Below, in pieces: positions 3,646-61,791 of a stretch of DNA of 64,000 nucleotides (position 1 is the first letter of the stretch; each line of letters starts with the position of its first letter). The position numbers and the translations under genes were made by a program. Under the pieces are notes generated by a model, which made no database searches, was not told the DNA's origin, and saw only the letters and a list, made by a program, of their open reading frames with translations. This stretch comes from Eledone cirrhosa (taxonomy: Eukaryota): positions 33,852,001 to 33,916,000 of the forward strand of contig OZ024754.1 in NCBI GenBank assembly GCA_964016885.1, given 5' to 3'.

Positions 3646-4284
3646 TTATTATTTGGTTGTAGCCACGAAAGCAGATGAATTGTTAACATAGTTGTAGGCA
3701 AGTGAGTGGGTGAAGATTAAAATCTCAGTAGGTCGAGATTTGCTATGTCCTATTTAAGGGAAGGAAAACTGTACTCACTTGCCGTGGTGAACTGACGTGA
3801 TATTTTTAGTGTGTGGCAGAAATATCAGAAGGCTTTATAAACATTTTTACAAAAAGGTTTATTTACAAGATTACAATAAATTGTTGCCAGCATGTTGCAA
3901 TGAGTAAATGAACAAAAGTTAAGTGTTGGAAGAAAGAAATTGGTCCCTCGCCGATAAGGGCCAAGGTTTCATTTTTTACCATTACATCTTGCTAGTTACA
4001 TCTTAGACACGAGAAAGTAAAAGAGTCTTGACTTGACGAAGTGAAAGCAGCAACTGGAGTGAAGTCAAAAGAAGCGCACATTTCTTCTAGCGGAAGTTGT
4101 ATATTCATGTGCAACTTCCACGATTGGTCAACCAGCGACCAATTCGCACATGAAAGATTGTTGTTGCGAGCTTCGAAGTAATGCTGCTACATCTTCAGGC
4201 GCATAGACGAGTTTATATATATATATATACAAGTTTATCCCGGGTTCAATTGGGGGTAACCACAGTAATATTACTTAGACAGTC

Positions 4285-4335
4285 GGCTTCCTGATGATTT
4301 CTCCCGAATGAAACAGTTCTAGTCATGTAGAAGCC
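4285..4335 (+). ncRNA. Type I hammerhead ribozyme fold (Penelope/retrozyme-like)
   Basis: Stem I GGCUUC/GAAGCC, core CUGAUGA (4291-4297), short stem II UUC/GAA, GAAA (4310-4313), stem III ACA/UGU, cleavage triplet GUA; degenerate second copy at ~61637-61690. Confidence 0.6.
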
Positions 4336-4487
4336 ATTTCTATATTAAATATTTATATATATATATATGAAAAGATTCAGGACCCCGATGCTTGAGTTCC
4401 GGCCGTTTCGATACCCCAAGTATCGAGTACTCTGGTGCGCTATGGTCCACCTGGTATCTTACCACACCTTCTTTGTTATATATATAT

Positions 4488-7951: not shown

Positions 7952-9244
7952 CTAGTATAGATAAGGAATAATTCGATACTTCACTGTACTGCAATATTTT
8001 TTCCAACTATTTCCATATTTCTTTTCACATGCAGCCGAATCTCGTCTCTCCCGGTGGATTAATAAGATGGTCATATAAATCGGATAAAAATAAGGAATGA
8101 TGCTTCCGAAGCCACAAGTCAAAGACCAGCAAACAGCCATTATAATATCTCCGAAATAATTAGGTTTCCGACACATGCCCCACCATCCAGACACTAGCAA
8201 TCGACGGTTGCATGCAGTAGGGATACTTTGTAAATTTGCTACCGACGGATGTTTGGGATCACGTCTAAATTTATTTTTTTGGGAATTAGATGAACGAAAA
8301 ATAAAGTAACCAACAAAATTTATAATACATAAAGTAATCAAAATATACCACGGTGGGCTGTATGACTGGGTCATAAGGTATTTACCCTGTAGCGGATACA
8401 AAAATGGTACCCAGACAAGGTCGCCAAAACACAACATAAAACCGAATCCATCATGAGTCAAGTCCATAGTAGTTAATATAGCATCTTCAAACCACAATGC
8501 ATCTAGTACGTAGATACTCTGGAAGATGGTCACAAGTAAGAGAGAAGGTGATGGACCAAAATTATCTAATAAAGATTTTACAACAAAACTAAGATTTATA
8601 ATAACCCAACCGATCAATCCTGGGCGCATTTCACAGAAAAACTTCAGATCGAAAGAACCTATCCTTGGATTCAGTTCACGTCCGATGAAAAAATCGTAAA
8701 AAAGATTGCCAGAGTTTCCTCCTGGGGCAAGTTTCGAAGGTGTTACTTTCAAAGATTTTATGTAAAGTAAAATACTTGAAATGTAGCTAAATATTAAAGC
8801 ACATATCATCAATTGAAAAAACTTGTCATAAATAATGCTTACTGGAAAACCCATGTGGACAGCAGCTAAAAAAACAATTATAGATATTAATAAACACAGG
8901 AATCCGTTACATCTATACTGGAGACGTGTACCGTCTTTTAGGGGGACACCTAAGTGTAATTTTCCAATAGGTAGTAGAGCCAATAAAGATTGTAAAATCA
9001 TCCAGAGTAAAAACATCGATATCCCGGTCCAATCGATAAAATATGTCCACCAATTATAAATGAAAGGTAATTGACCGAATGTACATGTTTGTTCATTACA
9101 CATAAGATTCATGACAATAACAATACATGGTAAAGCTATGATGTTCATTGCAGTTCCAAACACACCACCAAATTCTAAATCAGTTGTTTTTTCAATTTTG
9201 TTGGAACCTTTTTTATTTAGGCGGTTGTTTCGGTAAGTTTCCAT
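7952..9244 (-). CDS. TM7SF2: Delta(14)-sterol reductase (ERG24/TM7SF2/LBR sterol-reductase domain), single exon, 430 aa
   Basis: Intact ORF with motifs LEFGG, GN.FYDFFIGRELNPR..FDLKFFCEMRPG, TTMDLTHDGFGFMLCFGDLVWVPF, LLVSGWWG..R.PNYFGD, KYRIIPYLY; no N-terminal Tudor domain. TM7SF2 versus LBR orthology is not resolvable by eye. Confidence 0.93.
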   Translation of the reverse strand: METYRNNRLNKKGSNKIEKTTDLEFGGVFGTAMNIIALPCIVIVMNLMCNEQTCTFGQLPFIYNWWTYFIDWTGISMFLLWMILQSLLALLPIGKLHLGVPLKDGTRLQYRCNGFLCLLISIIVFLAAVHMGFPVSIIYDKFFQLMICALIFSYISSILLYIKSLKVTPSKLAPGGNSGNLFYDFFIGRELNPRIGSFDLKFFCEMRPGLIGWVIINLSFVVKSLLDNFGPSPSLLLVTIFQSIYVLDALWFEDAILTTMDLTHDGFGFMLCFGDLVWVPFLYPLQGKYLMTQSYSPPWYILITLCIINFVGYFIFRSSNSQKNKFRRDPKHPSVANLQSIPTACNRRLLVSGWWGMCRKPNYFGDIIMAVCWSLTCGFGSIIPYFYPIYMTILLIHRERRDSAACEKKYGNSWKKYCSTVKYRIIPYLY

Positions 9245-9582
9245 GGTGCTTTCTTCTTATTATTATTATAAAATTGTTATAAAATTATTTTCTTTTAAGA
9301 TAAAAACAAAAAGGTTGGATATTGAATGAAGTGCTCGCAAATTACCAAGACTTCCGCTATAAATTGTTTTGCTAGGAAACAAACCTGGAACTTCCTGTGA
9401 ACACGTGGCTAGTTATCTGGCCAATCAGATATCAGCTAGACGGAAGGAAATTCGAAGATGGTCGTAAATGTTTGTCGTCTGCGGAGATGATGGTTAAACT
9501 ATTGTATCAACTAATTATTTAACTTCTTGTGAGATCGATTCACGATATTTGTCGCGTATTCTAAAGAAAAACATTAATCAAT
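9245..9582. promoter_or_regulatory. Bidirectional promoter between sterol reductase and PPP2R3C
   Basis: 338 bp between divergent ATGs; CpG-enriched; ETS-like CTTCCG/CGGAAG (9351, 9441), E-box CACGTG (9402), CCAAT (9421), YY1-like AAGATGG (9455). Confidence 0.7.
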
Positions 9583-9661
9583 ATGACGCTGATAGACCAA
9601 GGGATAAGAAATGGGGAAATTTTTCGCCGAAAATTGAAGAGATGTCTTGAAATAAACACAG
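9583..9661 (+). CDS. PPP2R3C: PP2A regulatory subunit B'' gamma, exon 1
   Basis: MTLIDQGIRNGEIFRRKLKRCLEINT, G|GTAAAA donor, phase 1 matches exon 2; poorly conserved N-terminus. Confidence 0.65.
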
Positions 9662-9988
9662 GTAAAACTTCCGTTGAACTTAGTAATTACGACAACTATC
9701 TTTTTTTTGTAAATAAAATCCGTTATGTTTACCATTGATCAATCAAATAATTATAATAATAATCATCGTTATTATTATACCATTAAGAAGCCTATAGTAA
9801 CAAATGCTTTACTTTAATGTTTCACTGTTTTTTTTGTTTCTTTTTTTGTGCATGTCGCCTTAACGGCCTTAGATACCGTTAAACTAACAACCAGGATACT
9901 CACACACACACATCTATCTCTCTCTCTATATATATATATACACACATTGATATTTAATAAATGGAAACTATATTTATAAAACCATATT

Positions 9989-10049
9989 TATTCTATTATA
10001 TATATTTCAAGGATACCAAAATTTTGGTACGCTATCATCAGATAAAATA
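9989..10049 (-). ncRNA. Minimal type I hammerhead ribozyme (antisense copy)
   Basis: Minus strand UAUUUUAU CUGAUGA UAGCGUACCAAAAUUUUGGUAUCCUU GAAA UAUAUA UA AUAGAAUA. Confidence 0.7.
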
Positions 10050-10201
10050 CAAAATGTTTTATAAATTTTTGACATAACCAAGGATAATATACCTTAATGG
10101 TTGAAGTTATCCCTGGTTCAGTTATCAAGTTATTCCAGGGATAACTTGAACCGTTAAGGTATATTATCCTTGGTTATGTCAAATATTTATAAAACATTTT
10201 G

Positions 10202-10262
10202 TATTTTATCTGATGATAGCGTACCAAAATGTTGGTACCCTTGAAATATATATAATAGAATA
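10202..10262 (+). ncRNA. Minimal type I hammerhead ribozyme (sense to PPP2R3C intron 1), Penelope-type palindromic stem III
   Basis: Stem I UAUUUUAU/AUAGAAUA, CUGAUGA 10210-10216, stem II AG.GUACCAA/UUGGUAC.CU, GAAA 10243-10246, palindromic AUAUAUAU stem III, triplet AUA. Confidence 0.72.
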
Positions 10263-10397
10263 AATATGATTTTATAAATATAGTTTCCATTTATTTAATA
10301 TCAATTTGTATTATACTCCAGAAAACTGATGAGTGCTCTAAATTAGTTATAAACATTTATATTTGTTGAATTACCAACAAATTAAATATCCCTTCTG

Positions 10398-10449
<52 letters not shown>

Positions 10450-10578
10450 GAGGTTATATTTAATTTGTTGGGATTCAACAAGCTTAAAATTTTTTATAAC
10501 TGTTATAAAGCACTCAACAGTTGTGGAGTAAATACACAATATATTAATAAATGGAAACTATATTTATAAAACCATATT

Positions 10579-10644
10579 TATTGTATTATATATATTTCAA
10601 GGGCCACCAGGACAAATTATGGTGCGCTTTCATCAGATGAAATA
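10579..10644 (-). ncRNA. Diverged third hammerhead copy
   Basis: Minus strand CUGAUGA AAGCGCACCA..UGGUGGCCCUU GAAA UAUAUAUA; stem II sequence changed yet still paired, stem I weakened. Confidence 0.5.
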
Positions 10645-11422
10645 CAGATTTTTTTTTTATAAATAAATATTGACATATATGTGTGTGTGCGCGCGTGTTT
10701 GTATGTGACCTACCGTGGTGAGTACGGCTACTTCCCTGACATGACCAAAATCAAACAGAAAGTGGTGGAAGTCAACCAGGAGTGAGAAGGCCTTGAATTG
10801 GAATGTATATATATATACACACCACTGAACTTCTATTATCGAAACTGCTTAAGCTTAACTGCAGAGTGTACATGTCTTTAAATATCTACAGTTTACTTTC
10901 TTTTAAGTATGGAATATTAAGTTGAATAATGGTTTTACTGGTCTCATTTAGTCATATGTCAACCACACACACACACACACACACATATGTATATTATTGT
11001 AAGAAAGGCAATTTTATCTGTCAGCATAGCTTTTATCACAAATAAAAAGAGAAAAGGGGGGAAAAAACAACACACAAGCAGGTAATGCACACATCTAGGA
11101 CCACATACAACAAAAAGCAGGCGAAAGGGGTGGACAAACGAACTGCTGCCAGGACAAAAGATAACAATATTGTAAGGAGCACTGGGAAGCCTCTCTAATA
11201 ATTTTTGAGGCAAGCTAGCACGCCGCTCGCAATATTACTTCGGGTGATGGCGAGGCTGATACGCTTGAATAGCCAAGCGCCTTCACAAGCTTCACTAGTT
11301 ACCTCGGTTAGGCAAGCCGCCATATATATCAAATGTAGAACTATATTAACAATTCTCAAAGGGAATAAAATATGTTGTTTTTTTTTTTATGAAAGAAGTA
11401 AAATTTCACCATTAATACCCTT

Positions 11423-11630: not shown

Positions 11631-12921
11631 ATCATCATCATCATCATCATCAACGTTTAACGTCCGTGTTCCACGCTTGCATGGGTTTGGACGGGGGTTT
11701 TCCCACTTGAGGCAAGAGTGATTGTCTTGCTCGTATAGGACCGGCTGGCGGGTTTTCTACAGCTGGATGCCCTTCCTAACACCAACCACATTTACAGTGT
11801 GGGGCTGGGAGGTTTTTACCGTGTTGCCTACACGGCCACATTACAGCGTGGACTGTGTGTTTTTTTGTCGTGACACCTACACGATCTCATTTGTTTCGGC
11901 CTGGATGTTGTGGCACCAACATAACTTTACATTGAAAGGGGCGGTGTGGACGGGGTGGGGGTGGTGGGACGGGGGTGTATTTTGTTAGAGTTGCTTACTG
12001 ACTGTAGTAGGTTTTACTTTGTATTTAGGTAAGTCGGGTCTTCTCTATTACTGAGTACCGCCAAAGGTCTCGGTCCAGTGACATTGTCTTGGAGAGGTGT
12101 AAGTGTGTGAGGTCGGAATTTATCAGCTCGTCCCAGGTTTTTCTGGGTCTGCCTACTCCGTGGCTACCGTCTATCTTTATTGCCCTGCACTTTGTTATAC
12201 AGCTATCGTCTTCATGCGCATCACGTAGCCTTCTCTCGAGTAAACAACAGCTGATCCCTCTTATTTCTAATTTTTTCCTTAGTTCGTTTATGCTTTGCCG
12301 TTCACGTATATTACTATTGCACATCCAGCGGAGCATGCAAGCTTCGTTCCTCTCTAGTCTGCGTATATCCTCTGCACACAATGCCCAGGTCTCACTGCCA
12401 TGCAACATTGCTGTTCGTATGCAGGCATCATACAACCTGCCTTTCATTTTTAGGGAGAACCCTTTAGCTGCTAATAGTGGTATAAGCTCTCTGAACTTTT
12501 TCCATCCAGTTCTGACTCTAGCTACTGTACTTTCAGAGCACCCACCCCCACTGCTGATTTTGTCACCCAGGTAACGGAAGCTGTCCACTATTTCTATAGA
12601 ACCCTCTGTGCAGTTGAAAAAGCTAGTATTTTGTGGGCACTTGCTGCTACTTATTGCACCAGAGCAGCGGCCACATGTAAAATCTATGTTCTTAGTTAGC
12701 TTACCTGTGATCCCACTACATCTTTTATGCACCCATACTTTGCATTTGGGATACAAAATGGAGTTTCTACCTACGCCTTTCCTACACACTGAGCATGGCC
12801 ACTTCCCGGAAGGGACCGCCGCCTTATTTTCTTTCTTACAAACTAGAACTTTAGTCTTAACCAGGTTAATTTTAAGGCCTTTTGATTCTAGGCCGTGCTT
12901 CCATATATTAGAAGTTACCAC
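11631..12921 (-). mobile_element. 5'-truncated RTE-clade LINE (RT C-terminus with Cys-rich insert, 3' UTR, (GAT)n tail)
   Basis: ORF 12025-12921: GLKINLVKTKV, KWPCSVCRKGVG..WVHKRC, FRYLG, MLHGSETW, GRPRKTW; (ATC)n at 11631-11651. Confidence 0.88.
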
Positions 12922-13032
12922 ATGATTATATGGTCATTTGTTTAAAAAATATAGTCTTTTGAAATCGGGTGATTCTTTGTGATACACTCTGTATATATGT
13001 TTTAATTTTTTCTTACAATGTTTGCCTTTTAG

Positions 13033-13160
13033 CTACTGAAAACAACGAAAACTCTCAACTAGAAGAGTTAGAAATATTTACCAAATATTATCAACTTTGG
13101 AAAGGGAATTCTGTTCAAAATAACAACACATACTGTAGCATTCCAAAATTTTATTCTCAA
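13033..13160 (+). CDS. PPP2R3C: PPP2R3C exon 2
   Basis: ATENNENSQLEELEIFTKYYQLWKG...IPKFYSQ; AG/GTAAGT sites. Confidence 0.9.
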
Positions 13161-14028: not shown

Positions 14029-17000
14029 GAATAGAGCCAGAGATAAATGTTGTGAGACTGGGTGAGGAGAATAGAGCCAGTGATGAATGTTGTGAGACTG
14101 GGTGAGGGGAATAGAGCCAGTGATGAATGTTGTGAGACTGGGTGAGGAGAATAGAGCCAGTGATGAAGGTTGTGAGACTGGGTGAGGGGAATAGAGCCAG
14201 TGATGAATGTTGTGAGACTGGGTGAGGGGAATAGAGCCAGTGATGAATGTTGTGAGACTGGGTGAGGGGAATAGAGCCAGTGATGAAGGTTGTGAGACTG
14301 GGTGAGGAGAATAGAGCCAGTGATGAAGGTTGTGAGACTGGGTGAGGAGAATAGAGCCAGTGATGAAGGTTGTGAGACTGGGTGAGGGGAATAGAGCCAG
14401 TGATGAAGGTTGTGAGACTGGGTGAGGGGAATAGAGCCAGTGATGAAGGTTGTGAGACTGGGTGAGGGGAATAGAGCCAGTGATGAAGGTTGTGAGACTG
14501 GGTGAGGAGAATAGAGCCAGTGATGAAGGTTGTGAGACTGGGTGAGGGGAATAGAGCCAGTGATGAATGTTGTGAGACTGGGTGAGGAGAATAGAGCCAG
14601 TGATGAATGTTGTGAGACTGGGTGAGGGGAATAGAGCCAGTGATGAATGTTGTGAGACTGGGTGAGGGGAATAGAGCCAGTGATGAAGGTTGTGAGACTG
14701 GGTGAGGGGAATAGAGCCAGTGATAAATGTTGTGAGACTGGGTGAGGGGAATAGAGCCAGTGATGAAGGTTGTGAGACTGGGTGAGGGGAATAGAGCCAG
14801 TGATGAAGGTTGTGAGACTGGGTGAGGGGAATAGAGCCAGTGATGAAGGTTGTGAGACTGGGTGAGGGGAATAGAGCCAGTGATGAATGTTGTAAGACTG
14901 GGTGAGGGGAATAGAGCCAGTGATGAAGGTTGTGAGACTGGGTGAGGGGAATAGAGCCAGTGATGAAGGTTGTGAGACTGGGTGAGGGGAATAGAGCCAG
15001 TGATGAATGTTGTGAGACTGGGTGAGGGGAATAGAGCCAGTGATGAAGGTTGTGAGACTGGGTGAGAGGAATAGAGCCAGTGATGAATGTTGTGAGACTG
15101 GGTGAGGGGAATAGAGCCAGTGATAAATGTTGTGAGACTGGGTGAGAGGAATAGAGCCAGTGATGAAGGTTGTGAGACTGGGTGAGAGGAATAGAGCCAG
15201 TGATGAATGTTGTGAGACTGGGTGAGGAGAATAGAGCCAGTGATGAATGTTGTGAGACTGGGTGAGGAGAATAGAGCCAGTGATGAATGTTGTGAGACTG
15301 GGTGAGGGGAATAGAGCCAGTGATGAATGTTGTGAGACTGGGTGAGGAGAATAGAGCCAGTGATGAATGTTGTGAGACTGGGTGAGGAGAATAGAGCCAG
15401 TGATGAAGGTTGTAAGACTGGGTGAGGAGAATAGAGCCAGTGATGAATGTTGTGAGACTGGGTGAGGGGAATAGAGCCAGTGATGAATGTTGTGAGACTG
15501 GGTGAGGGGAATAGAGCTAGTGATGAAGGTTGTGAGACTGGGTGAGGGGAATAGAGCCAGTGATAAATGTTGTGAGACTGGGTGAGAGGAATAGAGCCAG
15601 TGATGAATGTTGTCAGACTGGGTGAGGAGAATAGAGCCAGTGATGAATGTTGTGAGACTGGTTGAGGGGAATAGAGCCAGTGATGAAGGTTGTGAGACTG
15701 GGTGAGAGGAATAGAGCCAGTGATGAAGGTTGTGAGACTGGGTGAGGGGAATAGAGCCAGTGATGAAGGTTGTGAGACTGGATGAGGGGAATAGAGCCAG
15801 TGATGAAGGTTGTGAGACTGGGTGAGGGGAATAGAGCCAGTGATGAAGGTTGTGAGACTGGGTGAGGGGAATAGAGCCAGTGATGAAGGTTGTGAGACTG
15901 GGTGAGGGGAATAGAGCCAGTGATAAATGTTGTGAGACTGGGTGAGGGGAATAGAGCCGGTGATGAATGTTGTGAGACTGGGTGAGGAGAATAGAGCCAG
16001 TGATAAATGTTGTGAGACTGGGTGAGGGGAATAGAGCCAGTGATGAAGGTTGTGAGACTGGGTGAGGGGAATAGAGCCAGTGATGAAGGTTGTGAGACTG
16101 GGTGAGGGGAATAGAGCCAGTGATGAAGGTTGTGAGACTGGGTGAGGGGAATAGAGCCAGTGATGAAGGTTGTGAGACTGGGTGAGGGGAATAGAGCCAG
16201 TGATGAAGGTTGTGAGACTGGGTGAGGGGAATAGAGCCAGTGATAAATGTTGTGAGACTGGGTGAGGGGAATAGAGCCAGTGATGAAGGTTGTGAGACTG
16301 GGTGAGGGGAATAGAGCCAGTGATGAAGGTTGTGAGACTGGGTGAGGGGAATAGAGCCAGTGATGAAGGTTGTGAGACTGGGTGAGGGGAATAGAGCCAG
16401 TGATGAAGGTTGTGAGACTGGGTGAGGGGAATAGAGCCAGTGATAAATGTTGTGAGACTGGGTGAGGGGAATAGAGCCAGTGATGAAAGTTGTGAGACTG
16501 GGTGAGGGGAATAGAGCCAGTGATGAAGGTTGTGAGACTGGGTGAGGGGAATAGAGCCAGTGATGAAGGTTGTGAGACTGGGTGAGGGGAATAGAGCCAG
16601 TGATGAAGGTTGTGAGACTGGGTGAGGGGAATAGAGCCAGTGATAAATGTTGTGAGACTGGGTGAGGGGAATAGAGCCAGTGATGAAGGTTGTGAGACTG
16701 GGTGAGGGGAATAGAGCCAGTGATGAAGGTTGTGAGACTGGGTGAGGGGAATAGAGCCAGTGATGAAGGTTGTGAGACTGGGTGAGGGGAATAGAGCCAG
16801 TGATGAAGGTTGTGAGACTGGGTGAGGGGAATAGAGCCAGTGATGAAGGTTGTGAGACTGGGTGAGGGGAATAGAGCCAGTGATGAAGGTTGTGAGACTG
16901 GGTGAGGGGAATAGAGCCAGTGATGAAGGTTGTGAGACTGGGTGAGGGGAATAGAGCCAGTGATAAATGTTGTGAGACTGGGTGAGGGGAATAGAGCCGG

Positions 17001-17575
17001 TGATGAATGTTGTGAGACTGGGTGAGGGGAATAGAGCCGGTGATGAATGTTGTGAGACTGGGTGAGGAGAATAGAGCCAGTGATGAAGGTTGTGAGACTG
17101 GGTGAGGGGAATAGAGCCAGTGATGAAGGTTGTGAGACTGGGTGAGGGGAATAGAGCCAGTGATGAAGGTTGTGAGACTGGGTGAGGGGAATAGAGCCAG
17201 TGATGAAGGTTGTGAGACTGGGTGAGGGGAATAGAGCCAGTGATGAAGGTTGTGAGACTGGGTGAGGGGAATAGAGCCAGTGATGAAGGTTGTGAGACTG
17301 GGTGAGGGGAATAGAGCCAGTGATGAAGGTTGTGAGACTGGGTGAGGGGAATAGAGCCAGTGATAAATGTTGTGAGACTGGGTGAGGGGAATAGAGCCAG
17401 TGATGAAGGTTGTGAGACTGGGTGAGGGGAATAGAGCCAGTGATGAAGGTTGTGAGACTGGGTGAGGAGAATAGAGCCAGTGATGAAGGTTGTGAGACTG
17501 GGTGAGAGGAATAGAGCCAGTGATAAATGTTGTGAGACTGGGTGAGAGGAATAGAGCCAGTGATGATGGTTGTGA
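14029..17575. repeat. 40-bp G-rich minisatellite (~88 copies) in PPP2R3C intron 3
   Basis: Unit AATAGAGCCAGTGATGAAGGTTGTGAGACTGGGTGAGGGG; degenerate copies extend to ~17700. Confidence 0.97.
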
Positions 17576-20336: not shown

Positions 20337-23300
20337 CCAGGAGATAGTATCAGCCATAGAAAGACTCATAGAAACATTGTTACTTTGGTCTGATCTGACA
20401 ATCAGATTTCCAGGAGATAGTATCAGCCATAGAAAGACCAATAGAAACATTGTTACTTTGGTCTGATCTGACAATCAGATGTCCAGGAGATAGTATCAGC
20501 CATAGAAAGACCAATAGAAACATTGTTACTTTGGTCTGATCTGACAATCAGATTTCCAGGAGATAGTATCAGCCATAGAAAGACCAATAGAAACATTGTT
20601 ACTTTGGTCTGATCTGACAATCAGATGTCCAGGAGATAGCATCAGCCATAGAAAGACCCATAGAAACATTGTTACTTTGGTCTGATCTGACAATCAGATG
20701 TCCAGGAGATAGCATCAGCCATAGAAAGACCCATAGAAACATTGTTACTTTGGTCTGATCTGACAATCAGATTTCCAGGAGATAGTATCAGCCATAGAAA
20801 GACCAATAGAAACATTGTTACTTTGGTCTGATCTGACAATCAGATGTCCAGGAGATAGTATCAGCCATAGAAAGACCCATAGAAACATTGTTACTTTGGT
20901 CTGATCTGACAATCAGATTTCCAGGAGATAGTATCAGCCATAGAAAGACCCATAGAAACATTGTTACTTTGGTCTGATCTGACAATCAGATTTCCAGGAG
21001 ATAGTATCAGCCATAGAAAGACCAATAGAAACATTGTTACTTTGGTCTGATCTGACAATCAGATGTCCAGGAGATAGTATCAGCCATAGAAAGACTCATA
21101 GAAACATTGTTACTTTGGTCTGATCTGACAATCAGATGTCTAGGAGATAGTATCAGCCATAGAAAGACCCATAGAAACATTGTTACTTTGGTCTGATCTG
21201 ACAATCAGATGTCTAGGAGATAGTATCAGCCATAGAAAGACCCATAGAAACATTGTTACTTTGGTCTGATCTGACAATCAGATGTCCAGGAGATAGCATC
21301 AGCCATAGAAAGACCCATAGAAACATTGTTACTTTGGTCTGATCTGACAATCAGATGTCTAGGAGATAGTATCAGCCATAGAAAGACTCATAGAAACATT
21401 GTTACTTTGGTCTGATCTGACAATCAGATGTCCAGGAGATAGTATCAGCCATAGAAAGACTCATAGAAACATTGTTACTTTGGTCTGATCTGACAATCAG
21501 ATGTCCAGGAGATAGTATCAGCCATAGAAAGACTCATAGAAACATTGTTACTTTGGTCTGATCTGACAATCAGATGTCCAGGAGATAGCATCAGCCATAG
21601 AAAGACCCATAGAAACATTGTTACTTTGGTCTGATCTGACAATCAGATGTCCAGGAGATAGCATCAGCCATAGAAAGACCCATAGAAACATTGTTACTTT
21701 GGTCTGATCTGACAATCAGATGTCCAGGAGATAGTATCAGCCATAGAAAGACCAATAGAAACATTGTTACTTTGGTCTGATCTGACAATCAGATGTCTAG
21801 GAGATAGTATCAGCCATAGAAAGACCAATAGAAACATTGTTACTTTGGTCTGATCTGACAATCAGATGTCCAGGAGATAGCATCAGCCATAGAAAGACCA
21901 ATAGAAACATTGTTACTTTGGTCTGATCTGACAATCAGATGTCCAGGAGATAGTATCAGCCATAGAAAGACCCATAGAAACATTGTTACTTTGGTCTGAT
22001 CTGACAATCAGATGTCCAGGAGATAGTATCAGCCATAGAAAGACCCATAGAAACATTGTTACTTTGGTCTGATCTGAGAATCAGATGTCCAGGAGATAGC
22101 ATCAGCCATAGAAAGACCCATAGAAACATTGTTACTTTGGTCTGATCTGACAATCAGATGTCCAGGAGATAGTATCAGCCATAGAAAGACCCATAGAAAC
22201 ATTGTTACTTTGGTCTGATCTGACAATCAGATGTCCAGGAGATAGCATCAGCCATAGAAAGACCCATAGAAACATTGTTACTTTGGTCTGATCTGACAAT
22301 CAGATGTCCAGGAGATAGCATCAGCCATAGAAAGACCCATAGAAACATTGTTACTTTGGTCTGATCTGACAATCAGATGTCCAGGAGATAGCATCAGCCA
22401 TAGAAAGACCAATAGAAACATTGTTACTTTGGTCTGATCTGACAATCAGATGTCCAGGAGATAGTATCAGCCATAGAAAGACCAATAGAAACATTGTTAC
22501 TTTGGTCTGATCTGACAATCAGATGTCCAGGAGATAGTATCAGCCATAGAAAGACCAATAGAAACATTGTTACTTTGGTCTGATCTGACAATCAGATGTC
22601 CAGGAGATAGCATCAGCCATAGAAAGACCCATAGAAACATTGTTACTTTGGTCTGATCTGACAATCAGATTTCCAGGAGATAGCATCAGCCATAGAAAGA
22701 CCCATAGAAACATTGTTACTTTGGTCTGATCTGACAATCAGATGTCCAGGAGATAGTATCAGCCATAGAAAGACCCATAGAAACATTGTTACTTTGGTCT
22801 GATCTGACAATCAGATGTCCAGGAGATAGCATCAGCCATAGAAAGACCCATAGAAACATTGTTACTTTGGTCTGATCTGACAATCAGATGTCCAGGAGAT
22901 AGCATCAGCCATAGAAAGACTCATAGAAACATTGTTACTTTGGTCTGATCTGACAATCAGATGTCCAGGAGATAGTATCAGCCATAGAAAGACCAATAGA
23001 AACATTGTTACTTTGGTCTGATCTGACAATCAGATGTCCAGGAGATAGCATCAGCCATAGAAAGACCCATAGAAACATTGTTACTTTGGTCTGATCTGAC
23101 AATCAGATGTCCAGGAGATAGCATCAGCCATAGAAAGACTCATAGAAACATTGTTACTTTGGTCTGATCTGACAATCAGATGTCCAGGAGATAGTATCAG
23201 CCATAGAAAGACCAATAGAAACATTGTTACTTTGGTCTGATCTGACAATCAGATGTCCAGGAGATAGTATCAGCCATAGAAAGACCCATAGAAACATTGT

Positions 23301-26300
23301 TACTTTGGTCTGATCTGACAATCAGATGTCCAGGAGATAGTATCAGCCATAGAAAGACTCATAGAAACATTGTTACTTTGGTCTGATCTGACAATCAGAT
23401 GTCCAGGAGATAGTATCAGCCATAGAAAGACCCATAGAAACATTGTTACTTTGGTCTGATCTGACAATCAGATGTCTAGGAGATAGCATCAGCCATAGAA
23501 AGACCCATAGAAACATTGTTACTTTGGTCTGATCTGACAATCAGATGTCCAGGAGATAGTATCAGCCATAGAAAGACCCATAGAAACATTGTTACTTTGG
23601 TCTGATCTGACAATCAGATGTCCAGGAGATAGTATCAGCCATAGAAAGACCAATAGAAACATTGTTACTTTGGTCTGATCTGACAATCAGATGTCCAGGA
23701 GATAGTATCAGCCATAGAAAGACCCATAGAAACATTGTTACTTTGGTCTGATCTGACAATCAGATGTCCAGGAGATAGTATCAGCCATAGAAAGACCCAT
23801 AGAAACATTGTTACTTTGGTCTGATCTGACAATCAGATGTCCAGGAGATAGTATCAGCCATAGAAAGACCCATAGAAACATTGTTACTTTGGTCTGATCT
23901 GACAATCAGATGTCCAGGAGATAGCATCAGCCATAGAAAGACCAATAGAAACATTGTTACTTTGGTCTGATCTGACAATCAGATGTCCAGGAGATAGCAT
24001 CAGCCATAGAAAGACCCATAGAAACATTGTTACTTTGGTCTGATCTGACAATCAGATGTCCAGGAGATAGTATCAGCCATAGAAAGACCCATAGAAACAT
24101 TGTTACTTTGGTCTGATCTGACAATCAGATGTCCAGGAGATAGTATCAGCCATAGAAAGACCCATAGAAACATTGTTACTTTGGTCTGATCTGACAATCA
24201 GATGTCCAGGAGATAGTATCAGCCATAGAAAGACCCATAGAAACATTGTTACTTTGGTCTGATCTGACAATCAGATGTCCAGGAGATAGCATCAGCCATA
24301 GAAAGACCAATAGAAACATTGTTACTTTGGTCTGATCTGACAATCAGATGTCCAGGAGATAGCATCAGCCATAGAAAGACCCATAGAAACATTGTTACTT
24401 TGGTCTGATCTGACAATCAGATGTCCAGGAGATAGCATCAGCCATAGAAAGACTCATAGAAACATTGTTACTTTGGTCTGATCTGACAATCAGATGTCCA
24501 GGAGATAGCATCAGCCATAGAAAGACCCATAGAAACATTGTTACTTTGGTCTGATCTGACAATCAGATGTCCAGGAGATAGTATCAGCCATAGAAAGACT
24601 CATAGAAACATTGTTACTTTGGTCTGATCTGACAATCAGATGTCCAGGAGATAGTATCAGCCATAGAAAGACCCATAGAAACATTGTTACTTTGGTCTGA
24701 TCTGACAATCAGATGTCTAGGAGATAGCATCAGCCATAGAAAGACCCATAGAAACATTGTTACTTTGGTCTGATCTGACAATCAGATGTCCAGGAGATAG
24801 TATCAGCCATAGAAAGACCCATAGAAACATTGTTACTTTGGTCTGATCTGACAATCAGATGTCCAGGAGATAGTATCAGCCATAGAAAGACCAATAGAAA
24901 CATTGTTACTTTGGTCTGATCTGACAATCAGATGTCCAGGAGATAGTATCAGCCATAGAAAGACCCATAGAAACATTGTTACTTTGGTCTGATCTGACAA
25001 TCAGATGTCCAGGAGATAGTATCAGCCATAGAAAGACCAATAGAAACATTGTTACTTTGGTCTGATCTGACAATCAGATGTCCAGGAGATAGTATCAGCC
25101 ATAGAAAGACCCATAGAAACATTGTTACTTTGGTCTGATCTGACAATCAGATGTCCAGGAGATAGTATCAGCCATAGAAAGACCCATAGAAACATTGTTA
25201 CTTTGGTCTGATCTGACAATCAGATGTCCAGGAGATAGTATCAGCCATAGAAAGACCCATAGAAACATTGTTACTTTGGTCTGATCTGACAATCAGATGT
25301 CCAGGAGATAGTATCAGCCATAGAAAGACCAATAGAAACATTGTTACTTTGGTCTGATCTGACAATCAGATGTCCAGGAGATAGCATCAGCCATAGAAAG
25401 ACCAATAGAAACATTGTTACTTTGGTCTGATCTGACAATCAGATGTCCAGGAGATAGCATCAGCCATAGAAAGACCCATAGAAACATTGTTACTTTGGTC
25501 TGATCTGACAATCAGATTTCCAGGAGATAGCATCAGCCATAGAAAGACCCATAGAAACATTGTTACTTTGGTCTGATCTGACAATCAGATCTCCAGGAGA
25601 TAGTATCAGCCATAGAAAGACCCATAGAAACATTGTTACTTTGGTCTGATCTGACAATCAGATGTCCAGGAGATAGCATCAGCCATAGAAAGACCCATAG
25701 AAACATTGTTACTTTGGTCTGATCTGACAATCAGATGTCCAGGAGATAGTATCAGCCATAGAAAGACCCATAGAAACATTGTTACTTTGGTCTGATCTGA
25801 CAATCAGATGTCCAGGAGATAGCATCAGCCATAGAAAGACCCATAGAAACATTGTTACTTTGGTCTGATCTGACAATCAGATGTCCAGGAGATAGTATCA
25901 GCCATAGAAAGACCCATAGAAACATTGTTACTTTGGTCTGATCTGACAATCAGATGTCCAGGAGATAGCATCAGCCATAGAAAGACCCATAGAAACATTG
26001 TTACTTTGGTCTGATCTGACAATCAGATGTCCAGGAGATAGTATCAGCCATAGAAAGACCAATAGAAACATTGTTACTTTGGTCTGATCTGACAATCAGA
26101 TGTCCAGGAGATAGCATCAGCCATAGAAAGACCCATAGAAACATTGTTACTTTGGTCTGATCTGACAATCAGATGTCCAGGAGATAGTATCAGCCATAGA
26201 AAGACCCATAGAAACATTGTTACTTTGGTCTGATCTGACAATCAGATGTCCAGGAGATAGCATCAGCCATAGAAAGACCCATAGAAACATTGTTACTTTG

Positions 26301-29300
26301 GTCTGATCTGACAATCAGATGTCCAGGAGATAGTATCAGCCATAGAAAGACCCATAGAAACATTGTTACTTTGGTCTGATCTGACAATCAGATGTCCAGG
26401 AGATAGTATCAGCCATAGAAAGACCCATAGAAACATTGTTACTTTGGTCTGATCTGACAATCAGATGTCCAGGAGATAGCATCAGCCATAGAAAGACCCA
26501 TAGAAACATTGTTACTTTGGTCTGATCTGACAATCAGATGTCCAGGAGATAGTATCAGCCATAGAAAGACCCATAGAAACATTGTTACTTTGGTCTGATC
26601 TGACAATCAGATGTCCAGGAGATAGCATCAGCCATAGAAAGACCCATAGAAACATTGTTACTTTGGTCTGATCTGACAATCAGATGTCCAGGAGATAGTA
26701 TCAGCCATAGAAAGACCAATAGAAACATTGTTACTTTGGTCTGATCTGACAATCAGATGTCCAGGAGATAGCATCAGCCATAGAAAGACCCATAGAAACA
26801 TTGTTACTTTGGTCTGATCTGACAATCAGATGTCCAGGAGATAGTATCAGCCATAGAAAGACCCATAGAAACATTGTTACTTTGGTCTGATCTGACAATC
26901 AGATGTCCAGGAGATAGTATCAGCCATAGAAAGACCCATAGAAACATTGTTACTTTGGTCTGATCTGACAATCAGATGTCCAGGAGATAGTATCAGCCAT
27001 AGAAAGACCCATAGAAACATTGTTACTTTGGTCTGATCTGACAATCAGATGTCCAGGAGATAGTATCAGCCATAGAAAGACCAATAGAAACATTGTTACT
27101 TTGGTCTGATCTGACAATCAGATGTCCAGGAGATAGCATCAGCCATAGAAAGACTCATAGAAACATTGTTACTTTGGTCTGATCTGACAATCAGATGTCC
27201 AGGAGATAGTATCAGCCATAGAAAGACCCATAGAAACATTGTTACTTTGGTCTGATCTGACAATCAGATGTCCAGGAGATAGTATCAGCCATAGAAAGAC
27301 CCATAGAAACATTGTTACTTTGGTCTGATCTGACAATCAGATGTCCAGGAGATAGCATCAGCCATAGAAAGACCCATAGAAACATTGTTACTTTGGTCTG
27401 ATCTGACAATCAGATGTCCAGGAGATAGCATCAGCCATAGAAAGACCCATAGAAACATTGTTACTTTGGTCTGATCTGACAATCAGATGTCCAGGAGATA
27501 GTATCAGCCATAGAAAGACCCATAGAAACATTGTTACTTTGGTCTGATCTGACAATCAGATGTCCAGGAGATAGTATCAGCCATAGAAAGACCCATAGAA
27601 ACATTGTTACTTTGGTCTGATCTGACAATCAGATGTCCAGGAGATAGCATCAGCCATAGAAAGACCCATAGAAACATTGTTACTTTGGTCTGATCTGACA
27701 ATCAGATGTCCAGGAGATAGTATCAGCCATAGAAAGACCCATAGAAACATTGTTACTTTGGTCTGATCTGACAATCAGATGTCCAGGAGATAGTATCAGC
27801 CATAGAAAGACTCATAGAAACATTGTTACTTTGGTCTGATCTGACAATCAGATGTCCAGGAGATAGTATCAGCCATAGAAAGACCCATAGAAACATTGTT
27901 ACTTTGGTCTGATCTGACAATCAGATGTCCAGGAGATAGCATCAGCCATAGAAAGACTCATAGAAACATTGTTACTTTGGTCTGATCTGACAATCAGATG
28001 TCCAGGAGATAGCATCAGCCATAGAAAGACTCATAGAAACATTGTTACTTTGGTCTGATCTGACAATCAGATGTCCAGGAGATAGTATCAGCCATAGAAA
28101 GACTCATAGAAACATTGTTACTTTGGTCTGATCTGACAATCAGATGTCCAGGAGATAGTATCAGCCATAGAAAGACCCATAGAAACATTGTTACTTTGGT
28201 CTGATCTGACAATCAGATGTCCAGGAGATAGTATCAGCCATAGAAAGACCCATAGAAACATTGTTACTTTGGTCTGATCTGACAATCAGATGTCCAGGAG
28301 ATAGTATCAGCCATAGAAAGACCAATAGAAACATTGTTACTTTGGTCTGATCTGACAATCAGATGTCCAGGAGATAGTATCAGCCATAGAAAGACCCATA
28401 GAAACATTGTTACTTTGGTCTGATCTGACAATCAGATGTCCAGGAGATAGTATCAGCCATAGAAAGACCCATAGAAACATTGTTACTTTGGTCTGATCTG
28501 ACAATCAGATGTCCAGGAGATAGTATCAGCCATAGAAAGACCCATAGAAACATTGTTACTTTGGTCTGATCTGACAATCAGATGTCCAGGAGATAGTATC
28601 AGCCATAGAAAGACCAATAGAAACATTGTTACTTTGGTCTGATCTGACAATCAGATGTCCAGGAGATAGCATCAGCCATAGAAAGACCAATAGAAACATT
28701 GTTACTTTGGTCTGATCTGACAATCAGATGTCCAGGAGATAGCATCAGCCATAGAAAGACCCATAGAAACATTGTTACTTTGGTCTGATCTGACAATCAG
28801 ATTTCCAGGAGATAGCATCAGCCATAGAAAGACCCATAGAAACATTGTTACTTTGGTCTGATCTGACAATCAGATCTCCAGGAGATAGTATCAGCCATAG
28901 AAAGACCCATAGAAACATTGTTACTTTGGTCTGATCTGACAATCAGATGTCCAGGAGATAGCATCAGCCATAGAAAGACCCATAGAAACATTGTTACTTT
29001 GGTCTGATCTGACAATCAGATGTCCAGGAGATAGTATCAGCCATAGAAAGACCCATAGAAACATTGTTACTTTGGTCTGATCTGACAATCAGATGTCCAG
29101 GAGATAGCATCAGCCATAGAAAGACCCATAGAAACATTGTTACTTTGGTCTGATCTGACAATCAGATGTCCAGGAGATAGTATCAGCCATAGAAAGACCC
29201 ATAGAAACATTGTTACTTTGGTCTGATCTGACAATCAGATGTCCAGGAGATAGTATCAGCCATAGAAAGACCCATAGAAACATTGTTACTTTGGTCTGAT

Positions 29301-32275
29301 CTGACAATCAGATGTCCAGGAGATAGTATCAGCCATAGAAAGACTAATAGAAACATTGTTACTTTGGTCTGATCTGACAATCAGATGTCCAGGAGATAGC
29401 ATCAGCCATAGAAAGACTCATAGAAACATTGTTACTTTGGTCTGATCTGACAATCAGATGTCCAGGAGATAGTATCAGCCATAGAAAGACCCATAGAAAC
29501 ATTGTTACTTTGGTCTGATCTGACAATCAGATGTCCAGGAGATAGTATCAGCCATAGAAAGACCCATAGAAACATTGTTACTTTGGTCTGATCTGACAAT
29601 CAGATGTCCAGGAGATAGCATCAGCCATAGAAAGACCCATAGAAACATTGTTACTTTGGTCTGATCTGACAATCAGATGTCCAGGAGATAGCATCAGCCA
29701 TAGAAAGACCCATAGAAACATTGTTACTTTGGTCTGATCTGACAATCAGATGTCCAGGAGATAGTATCAGCCATAGAAAGACCCATAGAAACATTGTTAC
29801 TTTGGTCTGATCTGACAATCAGATGTCCAGGAGATAGTATCAGCCATAGAAAGACCCATAGAAACATTGTTACTTTGGTCTGATCTGACAATCAGATGTC
29901 CAGGAGATAGCATCAGCCATAGAAAGACCCATAGAAACATTGTTACTTTGGTCTGATCTGACAATCAGATGTCCAGGAGATAGTATCAGCCATAGAAAGA
30001 CTCATAGAAACATTGTTACTTTGGTCTGATCTGACAATCAGATGTCCAGGAGATAGTATCAGCCATAGAAAGACCCATAGAAACATTGTTACTTTGGTCT
30101 GATCTGACAATCAGATGTCCAGGAGATAGCATCAGCCATAGAAAGACTCATAGAAACATTGTTACTTTGGTCTGATCTGACAATCAGATGTCCAGGAGAT
30201 AGCATCAGCCATAGAAAGACTCATAGAAACATTGTTACTTTGGTCTGATCTGACAATCAGATGTCCAGGAGATAGTATCAGCCATAGAAAGACTCATAGA
30301 AACATTGTTACTTTGGTCTGATCTGACAATCAGATGTCCAGGAGATAGTATCAGCCATAGAAAGACCCATAGAAACATTGTTACTTTGGTCTGATCTGAC
30401 AATCAGATGTCCAGGAGATAGTATCAGCCATAGAAAGACTCATAGAAACATTGTTACTTTGGTCTGATCTGACAATCAGATGTCCAGGAGATAGCATCAG
30501 CCATAGAAAGACTCATAGAAACATTGTTACTTTGGTCTGATCTGACAATCAGATGTCCAGGAGATAGTATCAGCCATAGAAAGACCCATAGAAACATTGT
30601 TACTTTGGTCTGATCTGACAATCAGATGTCCAGGAGATAGTATCAGCCATAGAAAGACTCATAGAAACATTGTTACTTTGGTCTGATCTGACAATCAGAT
30701 GTCCAGGAGATAGCATCAGCCATAGAAAGACTCATAGAAACATTGTTACTTTGGTCTGATCTGACAATCAGATGTCCAGGAGATAGTATCAGCCATAGAA
30801 AGACCCATAGAAACATTGTTACTTTGGTCTGATCTGACAATCAGATGTCCAGGAGATAGTATCAGCCATAGAAAGACTCATAGAAACATTGTTACTTTGG
30901 TCTGATCTGACAATCAGATGTCCAGGAGATAGTATCAGCCATAGAAAGACCCATAGAAACATTGTTACTTTGGTCTGATCTGACAATCAGATGTCTAGGA
31001 GATAGCATCAGCCATAGAAAGACCAATAGAAACATTGTTACTTTGGTCTGATCTGACAATCAGATGTCCAGCAGATAGCATCAGCCATAGAAAGACCCAT
31101 AGAAACATTGTTACTTTGGTCTGATCTGACAATCAGATGTCCAGGAGATAGCATCAGCCATAGAAAGACCAATAGAAACATTGTTACTTTGGTCTGATCT
31201 GACAATCAGATGTCCAGGAGATAGTATCAGCCATAGAAAGACCAATAGAAACATTGTTACTTTGGTCTGATCTGACAATCAGATGTCCAGGAGATAGTAT
31301 CAGCCATAGAAAGACCCATAGAAACATTGTTACTTTGGTCTGATCTGACAATCAGATGTCCAGGAGATAGCATCAGCCATAGAAAGACCAATAGAAACAT
31401 TGTTACTTTGGTCTGATCTGACAATCAGATGTCCAGGAGATAGCATCAGCCATAGAAAGACCCATAGAAACATTGTTACTTTGGTCTGATCTGACAATCA
31501 GATGTCCAGGAGATAGCATCAGCCATAGAAAGACCCATAGAAACATTGTTACTTTGGTCTGATCTGACAATCAGATGTCCAGGAGATAGTATCAGCCATA
31601 GAAAGACCCATAGAAACATTGTTACTTTGGTCTGATCTGACAATCAGATGTCCAGGAGATAGCATCAGCCATAGAAAGACCCATAGAAACATTGTTACTT
31701 TGGTCTGATCTGACAATCAGATGTCCAGGAGATAGCATCAGCCATAGAAAGACCCATAGAAACATTGTTACTTTGGTCTGATCTGACAATCAGATGTCCA
31801 GGAGATAGTATCAGCCATAGAAAGACCCATAGAAACATTGTTACTTTGGTCTGATCTGACAATCAGATGTCCAGGAGATAGTATCAGCCATAGAAAGACC
31901 CATAGAAACATTGTTACTTTGGTCTGATCTGACAATCAGATGTCCAGGAGATAGTATCAGCCATAGAAAGACCCATAGAAACATTGTTACTTTGGTCTGA
32001 TCTGACAATCAGATGTCCAGGAGATAGTATCAGCCATAGAAAGACTCATAGAAACATTGTTACTTTGGTCTGATCTCACAATCAGATGTCCAGGAGATAG
32101 TATCAGCCATAGAAAGACCAATAGAAACATTGTTACTTTGGTCTGATCTGACAATCAGATTTCCAGGAGATAGTATCAGCCATAGAAAGACCCATAGAAA
32201 CATTGTTACTTTGGTCTGATCTGACAATCAGATTTCCAGGAGATAGTATCAGCCATAGAAAGACCAATAGAAACA
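20337..32275. repeat. 73-bp satellite array (~163 copies, 11.9 kb) filling PPP2R3C intron 5
   Basis: Unit CCAGGAGATAGTATCAGCCATAGAAAGACCCATAGAAACATTGTTACTTTGGTCTGATCTGACAATCAGATGT; no indels seen, variation at about five positions. Confidence 0.98.
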
Positions 32276-44454: not shown

Positions 44455-44805
44455 CTAAGAGAATTTTTCAATAAGGAATTTTATATCCTTCTGGATATCT
44501 ATAGTTTGGAAAACTTTACTATAACGAAGAAACGGTTGCCCATCGGGTGATATGAGAAACTTCTCAAAATTCCACGAGATATCATTACGTTTGACTGGAG
44601 ACCAGATGATACTGGAAGGACTTTTCACAAAACTTACAGGATCATCACTTGGGTAAGGTAGATGGCTTTTCAGAAACTGAAACACAGCATGGCTAGTGTC
44701 ACCATTTACATCCACTTTCTCCATCATCATAATATTTGGTTGGAAGCCACTTCCTGGGCGGACATTGTGAAGGGACTGTAATATTTCTTCACTGTTTCCA
44801 TTTTC
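44455..44805 (-). CDS. GPX1: Selenium-dependent glutathione peroxidase (GPX1/2-like), last coding exon
   Basis: ENGNSEEILQSLHNVRPGSGFQPN..KVDVNG..WSPVKRNDISWNFEKFLISPDG..FS*; acceptor AG at 44806-44807. Confidence 0.95.
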   Translation of the reverse strand, partial: ENGNSEEILQSLHNVRPGSGFQPNIMMMEKVDVNGDTSHAVFQFLKSHLPYPSDDPVSFVKSPSSIIWSPVKRNDISWNFEKFLISPDGQPFLRYSKVFQTIDIQKDIKFLIEKFS

Positions 44806-61501: not shown

Positions 61502-61791
61502 TTAATATGTCACCAGAAAAAATAATTGATAAAAGTGTTGTGATTTTTTTCAAGGGTAAACATACTAAAATAGGACAACCCATCTAACCGATGCTAGCGT
61601 GGAAGCACGGATATAAAACTGTGATGATGATGACGATTCCTGATGATTTCATACAAATGAAAGAGTTCTAATTCTGTAGAAGTAATTTCTATATATAATA
61701 AAAGTGCCTATACTCAACCAACTTATTGACTACCGTTTTTAACTGTGGTTACTCCTTGACACAATTCGAGAACCTACATAATATATATATA

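Follow-up and report, generated by a model that had tools for sequence, protein, structure and literature searches.

The window, that is, the whole stretch of DNA that was analysed, comprises 64,000 nucleotides of one Eledone cirrhosa contig. A gene on its forward strand was called PPP2R3C, because an internal exon was 96% identical to the Octopus protein named PP2A B'' subunit gamma and the peptide of exon 1 matched the N-terminus of Octopus PP2A B'' gamma at 21/26 residues. Exon 1 lies at 9446..9661 (+), with the ATG at 9583 and a 5' limit that is the mere end of one contig, and exon 2 lies at 13033..13160 (+). The splice joint between them was read from a single contig of run X4 (n = 1), which fused 9659/61 to 13031/33 with GT..AG ends and kept the reading frame, so the hammerhead motif described below starts 541 nt into intron 1 of PPP2R3C, on the sense strand. 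The initial annotation had placed this motif in PPP2R3C intron 1, about 550 nt past exon 1, and both the host and the distance were borne out.

Divergent to PPP2R3C, a single-frame gene of the ERG4/ERG24 sterol reductase family was found at 7955..9256 (−) (PF01222, E 1.4e-139). Its frame encodes 434 aa without introns, stands head-to-head with PPP2R3C across about 100–330 bp, and was represented by an expressed contig in run X4. The introns of PPP2R3C hold two young tandem arrays, one at 14029-17575 (40-nt unit × 89, 97% matches) and one at 20337-32275 (73-nt unit × 164, 98% matches), and RTE-type retroelement fragments also lie in intron 1 at 11640-12930, where contig depth indicated a very high copy number. 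A glutathione peroxidase-like exon (PF00255) was seen at 44458-44805 (−).

Within intron 1, an inverted repeat was identified at 9942-10116 / 10135-10309, with sides of 175 nt that are 95% complementary and a spacer of 18 nt. The palindrome reported by the initial annotation is therefore present, but its arms are 175 nt long rather than 171 nt. Arm A (9942..10116, −) was classed as a short-form pseudo-LTR piece of subfamily 1 that runs antisense to the host transcript, and its 3' end touches a (CA)n/(CT)n/(TA)n microsatellite at 9897..9947, the likely target. The spacer (10117..10134) looks like a short piece of the neighbouring arm sequence in two copies and is likely a templated insertion at the inversion joint. 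Arm B (10135..10399, +) is a long-form pseudo-LTR piece of subfamily 1 in the sense orientation of the host transcript; its tail of about 90 nt occupies 10310-10399. The (TA)n tract at 10400..10446 is shared by arms B and C at their tailed ends and was taken as their target site. Arm C (10447..10677, −) is a long-form piece of subfamily 2, again antisense to the host transcript. With arm B extending to 10399 and arm C beginning at 10447, the two form a second inverted repeat of about 80% around the (TA)n, which the initial annotation had omitted; judged by its sequence, arm C is an independent and somewhat older insertion.

The type I minimal hammerhead motif of arm B lies at 10202-10262 (+), with a predicted cut at 10254/10255. 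Stem I has 8 bp including one G·U, the core CUGAUGA occupies 10210-10216, positions 10.1/11.1 are U·U (10217/10242), stem II holds a C·C mismatch (10220/10239), and GAA at 10243-10245 is followed by AUAUAUAU at 10246-10253, the site being AUA. All type I positions were present (C3 U4 G5 A6 N7 G8 A9, G12 A13 A14, A15.1-U16.1, H17), in agreement with the earlier claim of a complete minimal type I hammerhead on the transcribed strand. A search with the Rfam hammerhead models, which had been proposed as a check, found no hammerhead family at gathering score or at E ≤ 10; the only Rfam matches were hairpin-shaped miRNA models far under their cut-offs. A possible second hammerhead at 10327 in the tail (CTGATGAG) was rejected, as relatives show CTGTCGAG/CTGTTGAG and GAAA does not follow. 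Antisense hammerhead motifs lie on both sides of the arm B motif, as had been stated: one at 9989..10049 (−) in arm A, found by core scan and alignment of copies, and one at 10579..10644 (−) in arm C, with cores at 10041 and 10636 (−).

Compared with the majority of 29 relatives, arm A carries 5 uncompensated changes and arm B carries 2, neither of them inside the ribozyme. The 61-nt ribozyme of arm B, having no private change, would thus be a family-typical copy that is possibly competent for cleavage, but arm B has only 2 private changes in its other 114 nt, so the unmutated ribozyme is not informative in itself. Among the changes private to arm C are two, near 10639 and 10583, that break stem I pairs and are shared by 0/29 relatives.

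Repeat family and linked coding element

The 3.0-Gb genome contained 1,943 candidate relatives of arm B, and the 40 that were scored were mostly 97–99% identical. For arm C there were 2,119 candidates; among the 40 scored, the best non-self copies had 93–95% identity across all 231 nt, which defines a second subfamily. The exact ribozyme pattern matched 15,368 times genome-wide and the reversed control 0 times, so the hammerhead motif is not a product of chance. A pattern for the flank gave 30,570 genome-wide matches and again 0 for its reversed control.

A gene with a reverse transcriptase (YRDD) and a GIY-YIG endonuclease sits 5' of some repeat copies on the same strand. When loci were instead located through the endonuclease side of the protein (30 fetched loci, one being the query's own), the repeat was found downstream on the same strand in 28/30, in the short form at 21 of these loci, in the long form at 3, and cut or partial at 4. 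An inverted repeat copy lay upstream of the ORF in 16/30 loci, and all 16/16 were of the long form. The initial annotation had suggested a genome-wide search for such linked ORFs and a Penelope-like origin of the hammerhead; the linkage, the hammerhead, the inverted 5' copy and the optional tail all speak for that origin. A C-terminal GIY-YIG ORF linked on the same strand and a pseudo-LTR with a hammerhead are what define EN+ Penelope-like elements (PLEs), and both were found. The element protein has the DKT motif, a CxCX5C linker, and CxxC and CxH flanking endonuclease E and N, with CCHH absent; the place of the N-terminal RWK motif reads RWR, and RW[KR] occurs in 87/120 homologues. Insertion into (TA)n, a feature of the Hydra clade, was also observed. 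On this sequence evidence, all three copies are assigned as terminal (pseudo-LTR) pieces of a Penelope retroelement resembling the Hydra clade, the likeness resting on motifs read from alignments and on comparison by eye with Hydra-1_Obim. Five PLE ORF fragments had no match in Pfam, and a PDB sequence search with the 699-aa frame returned 0 matches.

Two other assignments were rejected. Naiad/Chlamys PLEs have an N-terminal endonuclease and no canonical hammerhead, whereas the element here has its endonuclease at the C-terminus and does carry a hammerhead; a non-LTR retrozyme was set aside since the head-to-tail tandem hammerhead array is missing at the locus. Several PLE lineages coexist in the genome: a second, divergent Hydra-type ORF was seen at L032:1522-2922 (−), and a CCHH-type GIY-YIG fragment of another lineage at a neighbouring locus (L034:1704-2249, +). 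The window also contains two copies of another hammerhead-like motif (CTGATGA T...T GAAA), at 4283-4350 and 61632-61700, both +, which are 81% similar, adjoin TA-rich sequence and probably represent a second Penelope-type family.

The ends of the copies were sharply distributed. The 3' ends fell into two classes at about +100 and +190 from core C3. The 5' ends of subfamily-2 arms lay at −84..−76 in 20/45 cases, with 4 reaching further, and those of subfamily-1 arms at −83..−72 in 21/33, in a set that is biased by the query start. Arms A and B, one short and one long, have their 5' ends at −77 and −75. The anatomy of the window pair, a short arm and an inverted long arm with a shared 5' stop and (TA)n flanks, is thus the family norm. 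At loci L097 and L118 the tail runs into the element ATG, 248–249 nt past the core. The 5' ends cluster at a conserved motif resembling CACT(A/T)TCC, some 80 nt ahead of the core and, in the window, just upstream of 10135. The motif has the look of an initiator and is likely the RNA start of the element. Cleavage in vivo might show as an excess of copies that begin at the cut site; no such excess was seen, with 108 copies beginning there beside (TA)6 genome-wide, a count confounded by (TA)n microhomology. The ribozyme was retained in 54/64 flank-anchored copies, and together with the few cut-site starts this is in line with uncleaved RNA as the template.

An antisense core followed by a sense core within 100–160 nt was matched 5,436/5,422 times on the two strands (about 5,400 loci), compared with 3/2 in the controls. 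This pattern demands A at 10.1 on one side, so the window pair itself is unmatched, and many of its first matches belong to a related repeat without an ORF link here. This related repeat is abundant as well, and its compact palindromes have CTGATGAAA as their core, for example at C1:723616-723778. In a count by eye, 12 antisense-then-sense pairs occurred among the first 100 matches listed for the ribozyme pattern. The initial annotation had treated the palindromic cage as a special feature of this intron, but with about 5,400 compact pairs it is a common insertion form of the family. The head-to-head layout is likely a routine product of copying and not a safety catch that controls PPP2R3C.

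Conservation of the hammerhead fold

Conservation of the core was analysed in 68 segments from two sets that had not been core-selected (overlapping loci duplicate some segments, and at most 3 core mismatches were allowed). The nine core positions showed 4 changes in 612 cells; N7 differed from U in 19/68 segments, with all four bases occurring. Covariation was then analysed in 59 sequences, namely the 3 window copies and 56 of 114 distinct ones chosen to cover the subfamilies. In these, 97.2% of 944 cells pair compared with at most 58% in slid controls, and the hammerhead stems had 54 double changes compared with 17.8 in shuffles, but the sequences are related, so the cell counts are inflated and the shuffle comparison is not a probability. 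The number of covarying pairs was 6, which is not above the shuffles; compensatory pairs were seen in stem II, and stem III of the 59 sequences showed no covariation. Covariation among genomic copies, on which the initial annotation had made its reading depend, was thus found by the excess of double changes, though not in stem III.

Two positions of stem II deserve separate description. At 10.4/11.4, C·C was present in 171/181 segments and a pair in 1, and the flanking pairs on both sides covary; the near-invariant mismatch is possibly a tertiary or protein contact. Positions 10.1/11.1 vary by subfamily, with A-U in 107, U·U in 41 and G·U in 20 of 181 segments. U·U also occurs in 14/25 Hydra-clade hammerheads by a count by eye in the available supplement of PMC8557442, and its description as an unusual defect that may reduce activity was not upheld.

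Selection on the fold is real as judged from these alignments, but it acts at the level of the element and not at this locus. The stem II of arm C, changed and still pairing, had been taken as a hint of selection here; it was inherited from a subfamily of 93–95% identical copies, and the private changes of arm C break stem I.

Masking of the ribozyme and origin of the palindrome

Folding prediction gave a cost of 5.9–7.0 kcal/mol for the hammerhead fold of the monomer alone and a stem III probability of about 0.002. The proposal of a minimal, dimer-type hammerhead was supported. For minimal PLE hammerheads, no activity of the monomer and weak activity of the dimer are reported (PMC4209133, in the part available). 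The predicted penalty of the ribozyme fold was 70.5 kcal/mol in the nascent RNA once the motif is complete, 78.6 kcal/mol in arms A and B together, and 58.7 kcal/mol with arm C alone, and about 96% of the ribozyme bases were predicted to pair with arm A. Masking by a long duplex is therefore supported by the model, at a penalty of about 70–79 kcal/mol. Arm A is transcribed first, so the hairpin would zip up ahead of ribozyme folding. No second sense copy of the arm B family was found within the 64-kb window.

Cephalopods are a group with heavy A-to-I editing, and editing and dicing of a long intronic duplex are plausible. The thousands of family palindromes are ready-made long duplexes in a heavily editing animal group. 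The initial annotation had suggested that editing could unmask cleavage, and this was simulated with random sites, inosine treated as unpairable, and 12 replicates each. With 25% editing, 73% of the ribozyme bases stayed paired and all 5 core A's were unedited in 24% of molecules; with 50% editing, the values were 43% and 3%, respectively. When inosine was read as G, the duplex stayed closed. In this model, editing heavy enough to open the duplex would usually strike the core adenosines, which speaks against unmasking by editing.

We consider it highly probable that the arms are PLE end-pieces at (TA)n, that the palindrome arose from one short insertion with two reverse transcriptions, and that the hammerhead is locked and has no host job. 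The element RNA would start near −80 within the pseudo-LTR, the element protein would nick both strands of the (TA)n target, and cDNA would be primed at two internal sites of uncleaved element RNA, as the copy ends suggest. Both cDNAs would run off the 5' end of the RNA and be joined head to head through the short templated spacer to give arms A and B, and arm C would be a separate insertion of the other subfamily at the same (TA)n. Purifying selection would keep the fold in active master elements, where the ribozyme is probably active in dimeric form or together with the element protein, and copies would decay once inserted. In the host pre-mRNA, the likely effect would be passive A-to-I editing of the intronic duplex. 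For the Anolis element, internal two-site priming with uncleaved RNA as the main template was described in vitro, and its hammerhead (PAc) cuts only with the element's protein (PMC11167929, available part). Inverted 5' copies, tails and a (TA)n bias are described for PLEs in the accessible part of PMC8557442.

Other readings give the cage a function or an effect. Sense intron copies might survive only when caged, with editing or the element protein freeing cleavage, so that conditional pre-mRNA cut sites would exist genome-wide; we regard this as very unlikely. If it were true, the thousands of palindromes would each contain a selected hammerhead variant, with the C·C in stem II and the (AU)4 stem III, silenced by its own inverted partner. 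We give hardly any credence to a passive filter without regulation, in which cutting by trans-dimers or with protein assistance purges uncaged sense intron copies and the caged ones survive. The fold is under selection in the family, the PAc hammerhead cleaves with its element's protein (PMC11167929, in part) and retrozymes are reported as depleted from Xenopus introns (10.64898/2026.07.22.740005, in part), but inversions are frequent wherever copies sit and are a product of the insertion mechanism.

That the host has exapted the locus as a switch, with ADAR editing or a helicase opening the duplex and the hammerhead cutting PPP2R3C pre-mRNA to lower its output, seems to us extremely improbable. 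The motif is intact, sense and close behind exon 1, and in a cephalopod ADAR might plausibly act on the 175-bp duplex, which counts for a switch; however, an equal layout occurs at thousands of loci, the arms bear independent, non-compensated changes, the fold is costly for the monomer even off the duplex with no same-family sense partner in the window, and the simulated editing seldom spares the core. Conserved intronic hammerheads are known from amniotes (cited in PMC7229834, in the part available), but minimal PLE hammerheads in the literature are either without activity as monomers or dependent on the element's protein (PMC4209133 and PMC11167929, each in part).

Finally, an assembly chimera from a fold-back read can be dismissed almost entirely: 10099-10124 was unbridged by the listed contigs at 99% likeness, but these contigs are filtered and break at repeats, and the arms differ at 8–9 places with their own changes and different 3' ends, arm A-specific sequence was at single-copy depth in three runs, and the layout is that of the family, the arm differences and the single-copy depth making a chimera unlikely. 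Contig differences over the repeat derive from other copies, and an opposite-strand joint at 10125 in contigs probably stems from another copy.

Comparison with known systems

The ultraconserved intronic hammerheads of amniotes, HH9 and HH10, are reportedly single-copy and conserved. Arm B resembles them as a sense hammerhead in an intron, but it belongs to a repeat with tens of thousands of recent copies. Non-LTR retrozymes likewise carry a type I hammerhead within a short, PLE-related repeat that does not code for protein, but the copies here are inverted or solo and form no head-to-tail tandem array (PMC7229834, in part).

As in the metazoan PLE pseudo-LTR hammerheads described in the available part of PMC4209133, the motif is of type I with a long helix II and a palindromic helix III suited to dimers, and has many dispersed copies; opposite-strand pairs 100–700 bp apart were already noted there for Schistosoma. 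Unlike those hammerheads, G10.1-C11.1 is not kept here, being A-U, U·U, G·U or G-C by subfamily, and stem I is 8 bp long and AU-rich.

Many features are shared with the Hydra clade of EN+ PLEs, including Hydra-1_Obim of Octopus bimaculoides (PMC8557442, in the parts available): a reverse transcriptase followed by GIY-YIG, DKT, YRDD, the CxCX5C linker, CxxC before E and CxH after N without CCHH, (TA)n targets, a type I hammerhead near the 3' end and inverted 5' copies. The same parts of that source also give differences. RWR stands here for RWK, and the hammerhead is unrelated to the listed Hydra-1_oBim motif and missing from the supplement. Stem III consists of (AU)4 and the site is AUA, whereas 25/25 listed Hydra hammerheads begin A15.1-C15.2; stem II has the invariant C·C; the tail is about 90 nt compared with 30–40; and the 3' region is long, about 0.9–1.4 kb from the ORF end to the repeat. 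In the octopus, Penelope and PPP2R3C-intron ribozyme literature that was searched, we found no description of the locus or of the stem II C·C, and in that literature and the available supplement of PMC8557442 no (AU)4 stem III with an AUA site or tail of about 90 nt. As a locus, this site is ordinary; what appears unreported is the invariant C·C mismatch of stem II, and the recent copies of several subfamilies, numbering tens of thousands, provide strong natural covariation for a Hydra-type hammerhead.

PAc, a Poseidon element of Anolis, belongs to another clade, and the ribozyme here precedes the ATG by about 250 nt instead of covering it (PMC11167929, in part). As for PAc, two internal priming sites would account for the tail, and AT-rich targets nicked on both strands and an uncleaved template are suggested, here from copy ends alone (PMC11167929, same part). 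The sharp ends (5' near −80, 3' near +100/+190) and the pairing of a short arm with an inverted long arm thus offer a genomic test of two-site internal priming.
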